The translations under genes and the position numbers were made by a program. From Candidatus Methanoperedens sp. (GTDB lineage: Archaea > Halobacteriota > Methanosarcinia > Methanosarcinales > Methanoperedenaceae), in contig JBGQBI010000005.1 in the NCBI GenBank assembly GCA_041494705.1, positions 120,001-152,000 of the forward strand: DNA of 32,000 nucleotides, written 5' to 3'. This document shows positions 10,228 to 26,509 of the stretch, piece after piece (within the stretch, counting starts at the first letter, position 1; each line of letters opens with the position of its first letter). The notes under the pieces were generated by a model that had not been told where the DNA came from, did no database searches, and was given only the letters and a program-made list of their open reading frames with translations.

Positions 10228-10479
10228 ATGGATGTTGCAGTAAAAGCAATTGAAACAACAGGAACTGTTGACGCACAGCATAGGCTTCTTTTAGACGAAC
10301 CGTTGCCTGTTGCTGGTCCAACACGGGTTCGTGTCATTATCCTGCTCCCTGAAGATGCAGACATTGACGAAAAGGAATGGCTTTATGCAGCCGCCACCAA
10401 TCCTGCTTTTGATTTCCTGAAGGAACCTGAAGAGGATATTTATACATCCGAGGACGGAAGACCATTTCATGATAGGTAA
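10228..10479 (+). CDS. Putative type II antitoxin (partner of MazF)
   Basis: 83 aa. Overlaps the toxin start by 11 nt. Acidic C-terminal tail (EWLYAAATNPAFDFLKEPEEDIY). Confidence 0.6.
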   Translation: MDVAVKAIETTGTVDAQHRLLLDEPLPVAGPTRVRVIILLPEDADIDEKEWLYAAATNPAFDFLKEPEEDIYTSEDGRPFHDR

Positions 10480-10813
10480 AGTAGTCCTTGTCCCTTTTCC
10501 TTTCGATGACCTTACGGCGCACAAGGTACGACCAGCCATATGCCTGACCAACCCCATTGGCTCCCATCATCATGTCGTTTTGGCGTTTATCACGAGTAGA
10601 ATACCGAACGACTTACTGGAAACAGATGTTGTTTTGGACTCAAAGTCGGCGGATTTTAATGTAACTGGCTTGCGTGTGTCCTCTACGCTTCGATTACATC
10701 GCCTTATGACAGTCACAACAGCCTTGATAAAGCGCGAATTGGGAGAGTTATCACCCGAAATGCGCGCTGAAGTGGTTAGCAAATTACGTAAATTGTTTGG
10801 TTTGAAGAGTTAG
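10469..10813 (+). CDS. mazF: PemK/MazF-family type II toxin endoribonuclease
   Basis: 114 aa. GKVVLVPFPFDDLTAHKVRPAICL is the hallmark N-terminal MazF/PemK motif. Confidence 0.85.
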   Translation: MIGKVVLVPFPFDDLTAHKVRPAICLTNPIGSHHHVVLAFITSRIPNDLLETDVVLDSKSADFNVTGLRVSSTLRLHRLMTVTTALIKRELGELSPEMRAEVVSKLRKLFGLKS

Positions 10814-21427: not shown

Positions 21428-21850
21428 TTATCTTGCAACAAGTACCGTGCATTCCGCATTTCGCACCACGTTCTCGGCAACGCTCCCCAGAAGGACTCTT
21501 TTTATTCCTTTCCTGCCCTCGGAACCCATCACTATTGTATGAACCTTGAGGCTTTTTGACACATTCAAAATAGTCTCTGCAGGGCTCCCAAGCTTCAGGA
21601 TTTTCTGCACATCCACACCAATTTTTTTCCCGTCGGCAACCACTTCGTCAAGAACTTTTTCACCATATTTTATCAATTCGTCCCGTTCTGATGTGGAAGG
21701 AACATTTACAACAAAAAGCGCCGCCATCCTGATATTATATGATTTTGTGATTTTTAATGCCGCTATTTCCGCTTTCTTAGCTGATTCAGACCCATCGGTC
21801 GCAAGAAGAACTTCAACTTTTGCCATATGTGAATTTTGTGCGTTAAACAT
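21428..21850 (-). CDS. Universal stress protein (UspA family)
   Basis: 140 aa. VLLATDGSE and MGSEGRKGIKRVLLGSVAENV ATP-binding-type motifs. An alternative start lies at 21826. Confidence 0.85.
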   Translation of the reverse strand: MFNAQNSHMAKVEVLLATDGSESAKKAEIAALKITKSYNIRMAALFVVNVPSTSERDELIKYGEKVLDEVVADGKKIGVDVQKILKLGSPAETILNVSKSLKVHTIVMGSEGRKGIKRVLLGSVAENVVRNAECTVLVAR

Positions 21851-21918: not shown

Positions 21919-22950
21919 TTATTCTAAATTTTCAACCTTGACTTCATTCTGTATTACAGGACTCATCACAATCAGGTTTTCAGAGCACCGGGATTTATAT
22001 TTGGTGCCGTTGGAATTAAGCACATTCAAAAGGATTTTTTCTATTGCATTTATAGCACGCACATCCGTATTCCCATGATAGATGTACAATGTATTCTCGT
22101 TCACGTCGATTCTTTCCACAATCCCCATGAATTCATATACCGATTTCATGGTCGGGATAAGTATTTCCAGCGGTATATCCCGTATCGGGATCTTATGAAT
22201 TGCCTCTATAGGCGCCGTGAGATAACTTGGGGCCTCCTTTCCTATCAACAGTTCATTATAATAATTTTTTGGGATGGTTACCATGTTATAATTTGTCTGT
22301 TTATATAGATTGACAATGCATTTCCAGAATTCCTGTTTTTTCAAAATTTCACACGCTATATCGTCCATATCCCCAAAATAATTAACAAGAGATTGCCTGG
22401 CAAGATTTGTATTCACCTGTTTCTTGAAACTAATCGTGATTTTGTTGGACATCTTTTTCAATGATACGATTTCCTGCTTTTTATGCGTGATTAAATAAGA
22501 AGAAATCATTCCACCGAGAAATTCCATTTTATATATACTGTTCCCGGAAAGAGTGACCTTCACATGCGATGGATGAACGTTATCATCGTAATCATCTATT
22601 TTTATAGTGGTCTGCCAGCTCACACCTGATGTCATATCATCAAGATACCGCTCAAGATCTGAGAGCATCACTATCTTTGCAGGATCAATAATGCTGTTAA
22701 GATGCTCCGTATCTATCAGCCTGCCGCGGGCCTGTTTGATCAGCCAGTAAACGATTGTTTCTGTGAAGTTGTAGTCTGTTTTTAACCCGTCTATAAGTTT
22801 ATTTATAGCCTCAGGATCTTTTGTCATTATATCTATAAGGTCTATTATTTCACGCATCGCAGCGCTGAAATTTCCATTATGTTTTCGGACAAGCGGCTCC
22901 AGTTTTTGGAGATGTCCTGTTTCTAATGATATATTTTTTCTTATAGACAT
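21919..22950 (-). CDS. Ribbon-helix-helix (CopG-like) domain protein with ~300-aa uncharacterised C-terminal region
   Basis: 343 aa. The N-terminus KNISLETGHLQKLEPLVRKHNGNFSAAMREIIDLI fits the RHH strand-helix-helix pattern. The rest matches nothing I recognise. Confidence 0.6.
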   Translation of the reverse strand: MSIRKNISLETGHLQKLEPLVRKHNGNFSAAMREIIDLIDIMTKDPEAINKLIDGLKTDYNFTETIVYWLIKQARGRLIDTEHLNSIIDPAKIVMLSDLERYLDDMTSGVSWQTTIKIDDYDDNVHPSHVKVTLSGNSIYKMEFLGGMISSYLITHKKQEIVSLKKMSNKITISFKKQVNTNLARQSLVNYFGDMDDIACEILKKQEFWKCIVNLYKQTNYNMVTIPKNYYNELLIGKEAPSYLTAPIEAIHKIPIRDIPLEILIPTMKSVYEFMGIVERIDVNENTLYIYHGNTDVRAINAIEKILLNVLNSNGTKYKSRCSENLIVMSPVIQNEVKVENLE

Positions 22951-22993
22951 AAAAACGTCCTTTTAGCGCGCAAAATGTTCTATGGTTCACCTG

Positions 22994-23031
22994 AATATAA
23001 ACGAAGTTGTGAAATTTGTGTGAATAGTGTA
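22994..23031 (-). promoter_or_regulatory. Promoter P1 (RHH gene): TATA box plus upstream tandem TCACA element
   Basis: Read in gene direction: ATTCACACaaatTTCACAacttcgTTTATAT. The TATA box is 44-50 nt upstream of the ATG at 22950. Confidence 0.5.
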
Positions 23032-23062
23032 CATGAAGTAATGAAAACCACATTAAATCAGG

Positions 23063-23096
23063 TATCACACTTATTCACAACAGCAGTTTTATCATT
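23063..23096 (+). promoter_or_regulatory. Promoter P4 (small TM gene): the same tandem TCACA element plus a TATA-like box
   Basis: TATCACACttaTTCACAacagcagTTTTATC. The distal TCACA to TATA distance is the same 22 nt as in P1-P3. Confidence 0.4.
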
Positions 23097-23128
23097 GAGA
23101 AATGAATTAGGATAATGAAGATTAAAAA

Positions 23129-23317
23129 ATGGTTTCTAAAAATATTACAACCCTGAGTTTTTTGCTTCCAGTTGCCATGACTTTAGGTACCAGTCTTGCC
23201 ATATTTTTTTATGAATATTATTCGTTGACAATGCTTATCCTGTATGCGGCCGGAGGTTTGCTGCTCTGTGTATATGTATTGGTATTAAGGGCTGACCGGC
23301 ACAGGTCTGTAAGGTAG
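23129..23317 (+). CDS. Small two-TM membrane protein (hypothetical)
   Basis: 62-aa ORF with two clear hydrophobic helices. It is the only + strand ORF in the block and sits downstream of P4. Confidence 0.35.
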   Translation: MVSKNITTLSFLLPVAMTLGTSLAIFFYEYYSLTMLILYAAGGLLLCVYVLVLRADRHRSVR

Positions 23318-23348
23318 ATTCTAAATAATTATGATTTTAAGGATGTTT

Positions 23349-23921
23349 TCAGACACCGGCAACAAGTTTTAATTTGGAGCCGCAATACGGGCATATGAGC
23401 CAGCTCGGCTCGATGTTTTTCTTACAGAATGAACACGTCTTGGCAACTTCCACTTTCTTTATCAATTGGCTGCCGCAATATGAACAATTATTCCATTTCG
23501 GGTCTATAAGGTTCTGGCATTTATCACAGAGCTTATAGGTCGAAGCCCATTTCTGGCTCTTTAACTCAATCCCGCATTTGGTACAGAACCTGTACGAAAC
23601 GACTACGCGTTCCCCGCATGAACACATTGGTACATCATGCATCCGCGTTGGATTGAGTTTCTTTTTAAGGTTCTCAAGGCACACACCGGCTTCACGCTTT
23701 ACCATTTCCTCAGGGTCTTTTTCTGCCTGAACTTCGATAATCCTGACAAGACTCTTGGTAAAATCAGGCATTTCCATATCCATTTTTGCAAAATCCACCT
23801 TATCCTGGTTTATCGAAGAAGAAATATATTTTAGAGTCATGAAGCGGGTGGCAACTATTTTACTTTCAAGCTTTTCAAGCATGTGCCGCCGTTCTTCTTC
23901 GGATAATATCTTGCCGCTCAT
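23349..23921 (-). CDS. Triple zinc-ribbon protein with N-terminal helical domain
   Basis: 190 aa with three CxxC...CxxC units (CSCGERVVVSYRFCTKCG, CDKCQNLIDPKWNNCSYCG, CSFCKKNIEPSWLICPYCG). Its start lies 1 nt after the upstream stop. Confidence 0.7.
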   Translation of the reverse strand: MSGKILSEEERRHMLEKLESKIVATRFMTLKYISSSINQDKVDFAKMDMEMPDFTKSLVRIIEVQAEKDPEEMVKREAGVCLENLKKKLNPTRMHDVPMCSCGERVVVSYRFCTKCGIELKSQKWASTYKLCDKCQNLIDPKWNNCSYCGSQLIKKVEVAKTCSFCKKNIEPSWLICPYCGSKLKLVAGV

Positions 23922-23922
23922 G

Positions 23923-24249
23923 CTATTCCGTTATCTCCTCAATCGATATGGATAATAATATTGCAAATACAAAAAACAGAATCAGGGTCACCGATAATAA
24001 AGCCTCAAAAACAGGATAGAACCCTTCAAAAATAATAGTTCCGATAGACCCGACCGCCCTTGTAATACCCAGCAATATGAAAAGATTGGTCATGATAATG
24101 AAATTCTTCCACATCATGTCCATAGTCTTTAAGCCTTTCAGTTCTCTTGAAATCCCGACAAGTAAATGAAAGGAAAGAACACTGCAAACCATTACTATCA
24201 TGGAGGCAACAGTATTCAGGACAACAAAGAATTCTTCATTCATCTGCAT
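23923..24249 (-). CDS. Three-TM membrane protein (hypothetical)
   Basis: Start set at MQMNEEFF (24249, or 24243), overlapping the upstream gene's stop by 8-14 nt. Three hydrophobic helices. Confidence 0.55.
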   Translation of the reverse strand: MQMNEEFFVVLNTVASMIVMVCSVLSFHLLVGISRELKGLKTMDMMWKNFIIMTNLFILLGITRAVGSIGTIIFEGFYPVFEALLSVTLILFFVFAILLSISIEEITE

Positions 24250-24715
24250 CCTCCTTGCTGAACACACTCCACGGCTCATTACGCATCGCATTTATAATCT
24301 TCCGAAGCCCGAAAAAAAGTATTACGAATACAATAACCTCTATAACCGGGTCAAGAATCCTTACAATCGCATAATAAGTATTCAGGGCATCCACTGATAT
24401 GGCAATATCACGCTCGGCTCTTTGCGCTGTCAGCACATCCAGCAAAATACCAAAAGCCATTATGACATTCCAGAAAACGAACAAAACCATGGAAATTGAA
24501 AGGTATTTCCAGGTCTCTGACCCTTTTTCCGCTCTCTGCCACAATCCTGCCGCCAGGTAAGTCGCACCGCACATGCCAAGAAGGAAGGATATCAACCTTA
24601 CGATTGTTCCACTCATGTCAATCCCGTTACTTATGCCGTTGACAGCCCGGGCGACATTCAAGTTAGCAAATAATAATAAAAAAACGCCAACTGTGGTTAT
24701 TGTTCGTTTATTCAT
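24236..24715 (-). CDS. Signal-peptide-bearing membrane protein (hypothetical)
   Basis: 159 aa. N-terminal MNKRTITTVGVFLLLFANLNVARA looks like a signal peptide and is followed by three TM helices. Confidence 0.6.
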   Translation of the reverse strand: MNKRTITTVGVFLLLFANLNVARAVNGISNGIDMSGTIVRLISFLLGMCGATYLAAGLWQRAEKGSETWKYLSISMVLFVFWNVIMAFGILLDVLTAQRAERDIAISVDALNTYYAIVRILDPVIEVIVFVILFFGLRKIINAMRNEPWSVFSKEDADE

Positions 24716-24773
24716 GGTATCAAGAACCTTAATCGTTTTATTCTGAAATCAAACTTAATGTTAATTAATCAGG

Positions 24774-24805
24774 ATATAAACCGATTTGTGAAAAACGTGT
24801 GATAT
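24774..24805 (-). promoter_or_regulatory. Promoter P2 (membrane/zinc-ribbon operon): TATA box plus tandem TCACA element
   Basis: Read in gene direction: ATATCACACgttTTTCACAaatcggTTTATAT. An ungapped comparison with P1 gives 24/34 identity. Confidence 0.5.
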
Positions 24806-24847
24806 GGAACAATTATAATCAACAGTAATAGTCAACAGGATTGACAA

Positions 24848-24886
24848 AATATATAAAAAGAAAATCTAACGGCTGCAAATCAGCCG
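24848..24886 (-). terminator. Hairpin plus T-rich tract downstream of the two-CW gene
   Basis: The minus strand reads cggctgatttgcagccg (6-bp stem), then ttagattttctttttatata, starting 7 nt after the stop at 24893. Confidence 0.35.
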
Positions 24887-24892
24887 CGAAGA

Positions 24893-25108
24893 TTACATCT
24901 TAACGGATTTATACCAATCGCAAACCATGCATGTAGCATGTTTCTGGGCAAACGATCCCTGGACTTTGCCTCCGCAGAATGTTCCTGCAACCATCCAGCA
25001 GTCTCTTCCATGATGCGGATATGCCGGGCATACGCCCATTTCTTTAACTTTTATTCCGCCAAGTTCTCTTCCGCATTTCTTAAGTTCCCAACAATTTTTC
25101 GGTGCCAT
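24893..25108 (-). CDS. Stand-alone Cys-rich 'two-CW' domain protein
   Basis: 71 aa with 7 Cys residues and two CW dipeptides (NCWELKKCGRE ... RDCWMVAGTFCGG ... CMVCDWY). From memory this matches the two-CW domain found at the N-termini of sensor proteins. Confidence 0.65.
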   Translation of the reverse strand: MAPKNCWELKKCGRELGGIKVKEMGVCPAYPHHGRDCWMVAGTFCGGKVQGSFAQKHATCMVCDWYKSVKM

Positions 25109-25121
25109 ATGTATTGGGTTG

Positions 25122-25164
25122 TTTTCACACGTTTATTAATCTACATGTGAAAAAGGTGTGTAAT
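25122..25164 (-). promoter_or_regulatory. Promoter P3 (two-CW gene): TATA box bracketed by the inverted repeat TTTTCACA-N16-TGTGAAAA, plus the tandem element
   Basis: Read in gene direction: ATTACACACctTTTTCACAtgtagaTTAATAA. The TATA box is 25-31 nt from the ATG, so the transcript is probably leaderless. An extra inverted half-site sits at 25122-25129. Confidence 0.45.
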
Positions 25165-25228
25165 GGTGGCAAACGCCAAGATTCCGTTATGTGAAAACTA
25201 TAATATGATTACAACTAATTGTGCACCT

Positions 25229-26509
25229 ATGTTCACAATAAAAAATCATCTTGAAATCAGGAATAATCACCTGGTAATAGGGGGGGCGGACACCACAGAG
25301 CTTGCAAAGCGATATGGTACGCCGCTATATGTTACCAATGAGTCCCGTGTTGTCGATAATTTCTCTACTTACAGGAAAGCATTCCCCGATGCCGATATAT
25401 ACTATGCGGCTAAAGCCAATGGAAGTTTTGCAATCCTGCGGATGCTTGCAAGGGAAGGAGCCGGCGCTGATGTTTTTAGTTACGGTGAGCTTTATATGGC
25501 GCTCCTTGCCGGTATCCCGCGTGAGAAAATCTTATTCAACGGCAATTCAAAAACAGACTTTGAGCTTCAAAAAGCCGTGGATATCGGCGTGAAAGTTTCC
25601 GTGGACTCAAGAGATGAGCTTCATACTCTTTCTGAAATTGCAAAAAGCCGGGGAAAAACTATAGAAATCGCATTTCGTGTAAATCCGGATGTTTCTACAA
25701 AGACGCATCCCAAGATATCAACAGGACTTCGGACTTCCAAATTTGGAATACCTGCTGAAGATGTTGTAAATATTTATGGCGAAGCAAAAGAGCTTCCCGG
25801 AATCTCACCCGCCGGAATACACTGCCATATCGGTTCGCAGATTCTGGATACAACGCCATTTAAGGAAACTGCGCATAAAATGATGGACCTTGTGGAGAAG
25901 GTGACCGCACTCGGCATCAATCTCAAATTCGTGGACATGGGCTCGGGTCTTGGGATTCCATATAAGAAAGATGAGAGCGCCCCGACGCCGCATGACCATG
26001 CAAACGCCATTCTCCCGGTATTCCGGGAAAGAACGGAAGCCCTTGGAATCACACCGAAACTCATAATTGAGCCGGGGCGCTATATCGTGGCTGATACCAC
26101 CATCCTCCTGACCCGCGTTAATACGGTAAAGAAAGCGGCAAAGAATTTTGTGGGTGTGGATGCAGGTTTTAATCTTCTTGTGCGCCCCACGATGTACGAT
26201 TCATACCATTACGCTGTCGTTGCGAACAAGGCAGCCTCGCCTACCGGGGATTTATATACCATAGTCGGTCCGATATGCGAGACCGGGGACATATTCGCAA
26301 AGGACAGGGAGCTCCAGCGCGTGGAAAAAGGCGACCTGATAGCCCTTCTTGATGCCGGAGCATACGGATTCAGCATGAGCAGCCAGTATAACGGAAGACC
26401 AAGATGCGCAGAAATACTGGTGAAGGATGGGGAAGCTGATGTCATACGGAGCGCCGAGGATGTCGGGGATTTGCTGGCGAAGCAGAGACTGCCGGCGAGG
26501 TTGATGTAA
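25229..26509 (+). CDS. lysA: Diaminopimelate decarboxylase
   Basis: YAAKAN (PLP-binding Lys), HCHIGSQ, EPGR and CETGD motifs. Start set at MFTIKNHLEIRNNHLVIGG because, from memory, methanogen LysA N-termini begin MF...EIKDGRFFIDG. The ORF is open back to 25163. Confidence 0.9.
   Translation: MFTIKNHLEIRNNHLVIGGADTTELAKRYGTPLYVTNESRVVDNFSTYRKAFPDADIYYAAKANGSFAILRMLAREGAGADVFSYGELYMALLAGIPREKILFNGNSKTDFELQKAVDIGVKVSVDSRDELHTLSEIAKSRGKTIEIAFRVNPDVSTKTHPKISTGLRTSKFGIPAEDVVNIYGEAKELPGISPAGIHCHIGSQILDTTPFKETAHKMMDLVEKVTALGINLKFVDMGSGLGIPYKKDESAPTPHDHANAILPVFRERTEALGITPKLIIEPGRYIVADTTILLTRVNTVKKAAKNFVGVDAGFNLLVRPTMYDSYHYAVVANKAASPTGDLYTIVGPICETGDIFAKDRELQRVEKGDLIALLDAGAYGFSMSSQYNGRPRCAEILVKDGEADVIRSAEDVGDLLAKQRLPARLM

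Follow-up and report, generated by a model that had tools for sequence, protein, structure and literature searches.

A tandem TCACA promoter element shared by a six-gene block and the archaellum and chemotaxis genes of Methanoperedenaceae, with a ribbon-helix-helix-like protein as candidate regulator

What brings together six small genes of no assignable function that lie between a universal stress protein (Usp) gene and lysA in a genome of Candidatus Methanoperedens sp.? Methanoperedens (ANME-2d) oxidises methane with nitrate or metals, and no genetic system is available for it. The genes, here called A to F, form an AT-rich block within a 32,000-nucleotide stretch of contig JBGQBI010000005.1 (positions 120,001 to 152,000), referred to below as the window. 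They make up four transcription units (A, B, E-D-C, and F), each preceded by the same tandem TCACA element. The original prediction, made from the letters of the window, saw in them a self-contained sensory or envelope-associated module, possibly horizontally acquired, with a promoter element dedicated to it and a ribbon-helix-helix (RHH) protein, A, as a plausible regulator. The analysis described here leads to another answer, which we hold fairly probable: the block is a detached part of the Methanoperedens archaellum-chemotaxis gene set, tied to it by a common promoter element, and A is a candidate regulator of this set.

The pattern CACAC-N4-5-TCACA has four matches in the 32-kb window; 100 dinucleotide-preserving shuffles gave an expectation of 0.03, and four matches were not reached in any of them. 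All four lie in the intergenic spacers of the block, each oriented to its downstream unit, and each is followed 5–7 nt downstream by a TATA-like octamer (Table 1), so that the sharing of one tandem TCACA element by the four units was borne out. The sites are conserved along with their genes. The element stands upstream of every sampled A ortholog whose upstream region was present, and the A site keeps its place and orientation across the sampled orthologous loci. Near-identical sites are found ahead of E orthologs, and the slightly different variants seen at B and F precede B orthologs (loci L003, L017, L027, L058, L093, L101, L107, and L113) and F orthologs (L017, L034, L061, L101, L107, and L113), respectively.

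The element is not restricted to the block. One genome per species, 185,579 species in all, was scanned for TCACAC-N5-TCACAA-N5-TTTAT, i.e., the 17-base motif plus TATA, which gave at least 117 stretches. Among the matches listed, about 93 come from 31 Methanoperedenaceae-type assemblies, where there are usually several of them on different contigs, and the other 24 are scattered singles in unrelated genomes (23 bacterial metagenome-assembled genomes (MAGs) or isolates and one Thalassarchaeaceae). A relaxed scan of the loci found by the exact motif yielded 200 sites, 189 of them with a downstream open reading frame (ORF). The position-weight matrix built from 168 unique sites has the consensus tTCACAC-n-ttTT-TCACAA-n-t-y-n-g-TTTATAt; a TATA-like box follows 157 of 175 sites, with a repeat-to-TATA spacing of 5–6 bp.

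The genes downstream of 161 sites in genome loci were classed by clustering and Pfam. The largest class comprises methyl-accepting chemotaxis proteins (MCPs) of the 4HB, Cache, and HAMP types (41 sites), followed by E (21), archaellin (20), A (18), B and a KaiC-like ATPase (12 each), two-CW proteins, to which F belongs (11), REC proteins (6; cheY followed by a cheB-like REC gene, and REC-PadR), histidine kinases (4), and a recurrent membrane protein of 113–118 aa (2), with 14 singletons remaining. Pfam matches to Arch_flagellin, MCPsignal/HAMP/Cache, Response_reg, PadR, HisKA/HATPase, and KaiC confirm the targets. The loci of the regulon were picked by an exact match to the motif, so the counts show what follows the sites and are not to be read as genome-wide frequencies. 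Besides the block genes, the element precedes genes for archaellin, MCPs, cheY-cheB, the KaiC-like ATPase, histidine kinases, and response regulators in at least 30 assemblies of Methanoperedenaceae. In locus L007, the element and a TTTATAT box at the same spacing precede two MCP genes, a 73-aa two-CW gene, E-D-C, and A, and three consecutive archaellin genes are headed likewise; the element also stands before MCP genes in L006 and before the gene of the KaiC-like ATPase in L001. No further sites were found in unselected Methanoperedens DNA (the rest of the window, L003 and L005 outside A-B, and L127).

The occurrence of the same 35-bp architecture before unrelated genes within one genome argues for a functional promoter element of a regulon rather than for a footprint of recent duplication. 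The element is a lineage-specific bipartite direct repeat situated at archaellum, chemotaxis, signalling, and block promoters, and the word “dedicated” has to be given up. The reservation that the motif might be common at unrelated promoters applies in part: it does occur at other promoters, but these are functionally related and therefore define a regulon. Literature searches on two-CW and on the regulation of Methanoperedens motility returned no description of the element, of the regulon, or of a PF27313 or two-CW function (PF27313 being the Pfam family of A, see below). A regular member of the regulon is the KaiC-like ATPase of 250 aa, distinct from ArlH, with a 151-aa partner (L001 2436-3640; L014, L025, L121, and L098); its gene often adjoins that of a 482-aa histidine kinase or of a REC-PadR response regulator bearing the same element.

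The genomic surroundings of the block, traced by tblastn of A–F and marker proteins against all loci, are in accord with its place in this regulon. In five assemblies, including M. nitroreducens Mnv1, the six genes are part of a supercluster with the order MCPs-F-E-D-C-B-A-A'-(REC)-arlB x3-4 (L007/L063, L080+L116, L054, L024, and L039), where A' is a paralog of A; a sixth assembly (L006/L051) has the order of the supercluster minus F and A'. An isolated F-E-D-C-B-A block like that of the window is found in six close relatives (88–98% identity), at least three of which carry the arlB cluster and A' on a different contig. In BLZ2 and two other assemblies, A-B stand alone and (F-)E-D-C are found elsewhere, and a further arrangement is KaiC-like-E-D-C-B-A-A'. 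Wherever a locus holds the 5′ end of A, B is its divergent neighbour. The six families thus co-occur throughout the lineage, and their shared arrangements indicate that they are ancestrally linked to che and arl genes; a block that several species embed between MCP genes and the archaellin cluster is not self-contained. L006 has DUF2111 after A and LonB at some distance behind it, the same order as in the window, and its left side keeps MCP, CheW, and ArlCDE. Given this shared flank beside che neighbours, the order in the window looks like the outcome of a rearrangement that took the che neighbours away, and not like an insertion.

F encodes a stand-alone two-CW domain protein (NCBIfam NF045718, 80.9 bits versus a cutoff of 35). 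The two-CW family is large, with members of 70–100 aa, and F, alone among the block genes, has close bacterial relatives, with 60–70% identity to Nitrospirae members. Invariant in 39 two-CW sequences are W7 and seven cysteines (C6, C12, C27, C37, C45, C60, and C63). The two-CW domain also forms the C-terminus of two Methanoperedens MCPs, one of 733 aa (L039, 72% identity to F) and one of 501 aa (L077), and on a Nitrospiraceae contig (L128 257-1664), a two-CW gene lies 17 nt after the gene of a soluble MCP. Because of these fusions and this adjacency, F is regarded as a chemoreceptor-associated module that most likely works with MCPs; that it acts as a sensor or adaptor for metals or redox state is speculative. 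The notion of a metal/redox or envelope stress module thus gives way to a motility and chemotaxis context, in which a redox or metal role of the two-CW domain is possible. The AF2 model of F (pLDDT 48) offers no usable predicted fold. In locus L129, a two-CW gene stands beside a GGDEF-EAL gene.

The other products of the block are the membrane proteins B, D, and E and the zinc-ribbon protein C. By eye, two transmembrane segments are predicted in B, three in D, and a signal peptide plus three transmembrane segments in E. C bears three zinc ribbons (DZR, 50.3 bits versus a threshold of 27.3; Zn_ribbon_3, 45.9 versus 27; and Zn_Ribbon_1) and a ~95-aa N-terminal region without a Pfam match. Pfam and NCBIfam scans of A, B, D, and E gave zero matches; a newer precomputed set likewise assigns no Pfam family to E, D, or B, B is also without an NCBIfam or PADLOC match, and PADLOC models gave zero matches to A–F, so that there is no anti-phage defence assignment. 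The view of the six genes as uncharacterised was upheld. E is confined to the lineage, with only six representative clusters among 1.84 billion proteins, and the motif lies upstream of it in 21 sampled loci. A paralogous relationship of E and D was considered and rejected, as there is no detectable similarity between them. From co-regulation through the shared element and from linkage, we argue that E-D-C and B may work together with the apparatus for motility or chemosensing; the constant pairing of A with B points to a modulation of A by B.

A combines a NikR-like RHH N-terminus (residues ~3-44) with a region of two alpha/beta domains assigned to Pfam PF27313 (AF_0136_C). This assignment comes from precomputed data for homologs and for orthologs in the fetched loci, the model being newer than the Pfam release used for the scan. 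All 84 A homologs carry PF27313, orthologs share 69–97% identity, and the only named sources of the homologs are Methanoperedens or “uncultured archaeon”. The family N-terminus reads R-K-N-I-S-L-E ... G-N-F-S-A-A-M-R-E-I-I-D. When its profile was compared by hhalign with residues 1-49 of E. coli NikR (reference sequence verified as 1q5v_A), a probability of 88.8% and an E value of 2.5e-6 were obtained, with NikR 1-39 aligned. This similarity supports the description of A as a plausible DNA-binding regulator, and A is probably a member of the RHH superfamily. In the AF2 model of A (pLDDT 71.7), residues 1-9 are unstructured, as expected because the strand pairs only in the dimer; helices 11-23 and 28-44 and two well-predicted domains, 96-192 and 245-331, follow. 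With an RHH head and two alpha/beta domains, the predicted architecture of A thus resembles that of NikR. Weak LAGLIDADG-like and H-NOX-like fold resemblances of A, none below E = 1e-3, were not relied on.

A' is a paralog of 222–230 aa that is confined to Methanoperedenaceae and in most genomes is encoded immediately upstream of the archaellin cluster. Its N-terminus is common to A, including the residues R, N, and S that the NikR alignment places in the putative DNA-reading strand. These residues are different in clades of 480–488-aa paralogs, which have unrelated contexts and include some members annotated as hydrocarbon-binding (V4R-like). In a motif-follows-family comparison of 80 metagenomic loci of distant PF27313 members, the tandem site was found only at Methanoperedens-type orthologs, and upstream of the P0049 and P0055 homologs, there are at most two isolated TTCACAA half-sites. 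A' has a conserved promoter region of its own, …GTATTAAATACT… and then ATTATCATCATTAT-like palindromic runs (L007 9054-9260; L116, L024, L054, L010, and L123), and this distinct element suggests that a second regulatory layer may exist. Within the wider family, a conserved block, cccCACTCCCCAACCCGCc, is present ~170 nt upstream of the genes of a 348-aa PF27313 subfamily (MVVRKNISLE...; L138-L168), some of which show a single TGTGA beside the TATA box. The PF27313 members P0050, P0053, P0054, and P0083 have a hydrophobic extension of ~55-70 residues before the RHH-like motif; this is probably a pair of transmembrane helices, and such members would be membrane-tethered versions of the regulator.

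The position of the element suggests how it may work. The two TCACA repeats are spaced one helical turn apart, 5–6 bp upstream of TATA and just beyond the position of the B recognition element (BRE). By archaeal promoter logic and the precedents of EarA and Ptr2 (PMC10665913, PMC5512572), a protein bound at a site just upstream of BRE/TATA would be an activator helping to recruit TFB and TBP. Two dimers of A would sit on the tandem repeats, activating the promoter of A itself and co-activating the regulon, and A' may share the regulator role. A signal would reach A through its C-terminal domains, possibly by way of the small membrane protein B, and E-D-C (a membrane pair with a zinc-ribbon protein) and B would be accessory components specific to the lineage and expressed together with the motility apparatus. 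A is favoured as the binder because it is the sole predicted DNA-binding protein always present in the block, because it always carries the site, implying positive autoregulation, and because it lies inside the supercluster and is as narrowly distributed among lineages as the motif. That A, possibly with A', binds the element is nevertheless a tentative proposal, whose prospects may be called just short of even.

Several points weigh against this assignment. The Pfam RHH_1 match is sub-threshold for the A family (E = 0.077 in 2 of 12 members), PDB sequence searches with the full A profile and with the N-terminal profile gave no significant match, and Foldseek of the A model against PDB gave no match below E = 1e-3. 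The promoter of A' is without the TCACA tandem, and so is the DNA upstream of the genes of the 348-aa subfamily, although this subfamily has the same R-K-N-I-S-L strand. The sampling is biased, since the loci of regulon members were chosen by exact motif match. Moreover, other DNA-binding proteins are encoded in or near the regulon, namely, REC-PadR, a 210-aa REC protein between A' and arlB, and one FilR1-type winged helix-turn-helix (wHTH) protein, and an EarA homolog elsewhere in the genome is possible. Head-to-tail repeats with an 11-bp period are typical of winged-helix response regulators and would suit their tandem binding.

These points lead to an alternative that is unlikely but deserves attention: the regulon is real, but its element is read by REC-PadR, by the 210-aa REC protein upstream of arlB, or by an EarA-type winged-helix activator encoded elsewhere, and A and A' are regulon members with other targets or non-DNA roles. 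The REC-PadR genes (285–287 aa) are themselves headed by the motif, the tandem is missing upstream of distant PF27313 members whose strand residues are the same, and EarA homologs are reported to be widespread in Euryarchaeota outside haloarchaea (PMC10117864). However, motif-bearing REC-PadR genes were seen in few assemblies only, the fam-like methyltransferase that normally accompanies earA is without a wHTH neighbour in one genome, and EarA, widespread as it is, has a different site (TACATA), whereas the motif, A, and A' share one lineage. To this must be added that A, encoded inside the supercluster, has the site at its own promoter wherever the upstream region was present in the sampled genomes.

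It is improbable that the element is an extended core promoter read by a motility-dedicated TFB or TBP paralog. The spacing to TATA is fixed, the bases between the repeat and TATA are partly conserved, and some Euryarchaeota have multiple TFB and TBP paralogs; yet the repeats lie ~7-24 bp upstream of TATA, past the ~6-bp BRE contacted by TFB, a two-copy repeat with an 11-bp period is the signature of a multimeric DNA-binding protein, and the B-type sites tolerate a spacing 1 bp shorter. As for the self-contained, possibly acquired sensory or envelope module with a private element and an RHH regulator of its own, the isolation of the six genes amid housekeeping genes in the window genome, the lowest GC content of the window, and the presence of all four window copies of the motif inside the block speak for it, but it is highly improbable in view of the element at dozens of archaellum and chemotaxis promoters of the lineage, the contiguity of the block with MCP and arlB clusters in other species, the confinement of A, A', and E, which have no close relatives beyond Methanoperedenaceae, the flank A-DUF2111...LonB shared with a che-bearing species, the unremarkable GC content at third codon positions (GC3), and the absence of a tRNA in the window and of any integrase family match among the window ORFs scanned with Pfam.

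Turning to the block itself, the ORF listing and profile matches confirmed the six ORFs between the Usp gene and lysA at the places originally given for them. The start of D was set at M17 of the 122-aa ORF because D orthologs have 106–107 aa and the same 8-nt overlap with the stop of E. The start codon of C, as read from the sequence, is 1 nt past the stop of D, and E-D-C is therefore a tight operon with E as its first and C as its last gene; tblastn across the loci showed this order to be conserved.

Table 1. Genes, promoter sites, and flanking genes of the block (positions in the 32-kb window)
Feature	Positions	Strand	Length or sequence	Remarks
Gene A	21919-22950	-	343 aa	ORF
Gene B	23129-23317	+	62 aa	ORF
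Gene C	23349-23921	-	190 aa	ORF
Gene D, ORF	23923-24291	-	122 aa	ORF
Gene D, probable extent	23923-24243	-	106 aa	probable real start 24243
Gene E	24236-24715	-	159 aa	ORF
Gene F	24893-25108	-	71 aa	ORF
CACAC-N4-5-TCACA core	23008-23022	-		
CACAC-N4-5-TCACA core	23066-23079	+		
CACAC-N4-5-TCACA core	24787-24801	-		
CACAC-N4-5-TCACA core	25146-25160	-		
Promoter site of A	23007-23024	-	TTCACACAAATTTCACAA	two TCACA repeats, 11-bp period
TATA box of A	22994-23001	-	TTTATATT	5 nt downstream of proximal TTCACAA
Promoter site of B	23064-23080	+	ATCACACTTATTCACAA	repeats 1 base closer together
TATA-like box of B	23087-23094	+	TTTTATCA	
Promoter site of E-D-C	24786-24803	-	ATCACACGTTTTTCACAA	
TATA box of E-D-C	24763-24770	-	TTTATATC	
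Promoter site of F	25145-25162	-	TACACACCTTTTTCACAT	degenerate at both outer bases
TATA-like box of F	25132-25139	-	TTAATAAA	
Usp gene	21428-21850			block flank
lysA				other block flank; TIGR01048, 506 bits

The block is indeed AT-richer than its surroundings, though only modestly, with a GC content of 38.8% versus 45.1% and 45.4% in the two flanks, and is among the lowest 1% of 3.3-kb sliding windows. The initial impression of its AT-richness was nevertheless overstated, since no flank window reaches 60% GC. The dip comes mostly from a total of ~0.5 kb of spacers at 16–34% GC and from genes A (37%) and D (36%). GC3 does not set the block apart: it is 0.41–0.50 in the block genes, overlapping the 0.40–0.57 of the flanking genes.

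The F-lysA spacer has some features of its own. The F transcript is predicted to be leaderless or nearly so. The longest lysA ORF begins at 25163, thus abutting the promoter site of F (the two were recorded as overlapping), but the TIGR01048 match starts only at residue 33, which makes M23 at 25229 (or M15 at 25205) the probable true start of lysA. The spacer also holds an inverted pair, TTTTCACA (25122-25129) and TGTGAAAA (25146-25153). The TGTGAAAA arm doubles as the proximal repeat within the promoter site of F; TTTTCACA would fall a little downstream of the TATA box of F, close to where transcription is predicted to start, and might serve as an additional half-site, possibly a repressing one.

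According to the Pfam scan, the remaining genes of the window are housekeeping genes for MutS, the PolD small subunit, LonB, TldD, an M50 protease, a LeuB-type dehydrogenase, fibrillarin, RimK, LysA, and FtsZ. A gene of a PemK/MazF-type toxin is situated among them at 10469-10813. Rfam and tRNA scans of the 32-kb window revealed no structured RNA and no tRNA.

The practical value of the element is that it lets a motility and chemotaxis regulon be listed straight from a MAG. A and A' become named candidate regulators, and the orphan proteins, together with the widespread two-CW domain, gain a chemotaxis context. Methanoperedens switches between motile planktonic cells and aggregates, its archaellin genes respond to the electron acceptor, and its motility is linked to its life cycle and to the use of electron acceptors (PMC13046784); public metatranscriptomes are available (PMC13046784, PMC12138975). 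A bolder reading, which is plausible though somewhat less likely than not, is that Methanoperedenaceae have replaced EarA or never used it, and that the RHH pair A/A', by reading the TCACA repeat with its 11-bp period, runs the whole motility programme, i.e., archaellins, about ten chemoreceptors, the che operon, the KaiC-like ATPase, and kinases. In that case, E-D-C and B would be new membrane components of the archaellum or of the chemosensory machinery, two-CW would count as a new Cys-cluster sensor domain that is associated with chemoreceptors and shared with Nitrospirae, and the system would be the genetic switch by which these methane oxidisers pass between planktonic-motile cells and aggregates.

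Parts of this system have counterparts among well-studied ones. Like the C-terminal domains of other MCPs, e.g., the zinc-binding CZB domain, two-CW occurs as a Cys-rich C-terminal extension of MCPs or is encoded beside a soluble MCP; unlike CZB, to which it has no sequence relation, it has seven invariant cysteines. The proposed reading of the element resembles that by the omega repressor and other RHH proteins whose sites are non-palindromic repeats; in these, a dimer recognizes short asymmetric tandem repeats, and the omega heptad WATCACW has the TCAC core in common with the element. The omega sites are, however, contiguous 7-bp heptads serving the repression of plasmid promoters, whereas here two repeats stand 11 bp apart in an activator position. 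With NikR, A would share the plan of an RHH DNA-binding head followed by C-terminal alpha/beta regulatory domains, as judged from the AF2 model of A. Its C-terminal ~300 residues are AF_0136_C, without detectable similarity to the metal-binding domain of NikR, and its proposed operator is a direct repeat upstream of TATA, suggesting activation, whereas NikR represses at inverted half-sites.

The closest known parallel is EarA, which binds short repeats directly upstream of the BRE of the arlB promoter and activates it (PMC10665913, PMC5512572, PMC10117864). In one of the Methanoperedens loci (L120 3000-4043), a gene of Methyltransf_28, the type that accompanies earA elsewhere, is found between arlCDE and an apparently split nth, and no gene for a regulator adjoins it; part of the methyltransferase ORF is masked as a run of X. 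The sites differ: TCACA with an 11-bp period here, and the 6-bp TACATA in the case of EarA. So does the range of targets, which for EarA is the first arlB only and here includes several arlB genes, MCPs, cheY-cheB, the KaiC-like ATPase, kinases, and the block genes. EarA is set apart by its descriptions as a winged-helix protein, whereas A and A' are RHH-like and have no match to an HTH family, so that A falls outside the EarA family; the adjacent methyltransferase-wHTH pair was not seen here. What the two systems have in common is the regulator gene, often located beside arl or che clusters (PMC10665913, PMC5512572, PMC10117864), and the promoter design known from Methanococcus maripaludis, Pyrococcus furiosus, and Thermococcales, with short repeats just upstream of the archaellin BRE/TATA, which implies that activation works by recruiting the basal machinery. 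The cited literature names only EarA and the haloarchaeal CsmR as archaellum regulators of Euryarchaeota, and A, with A', would broaden this short list.

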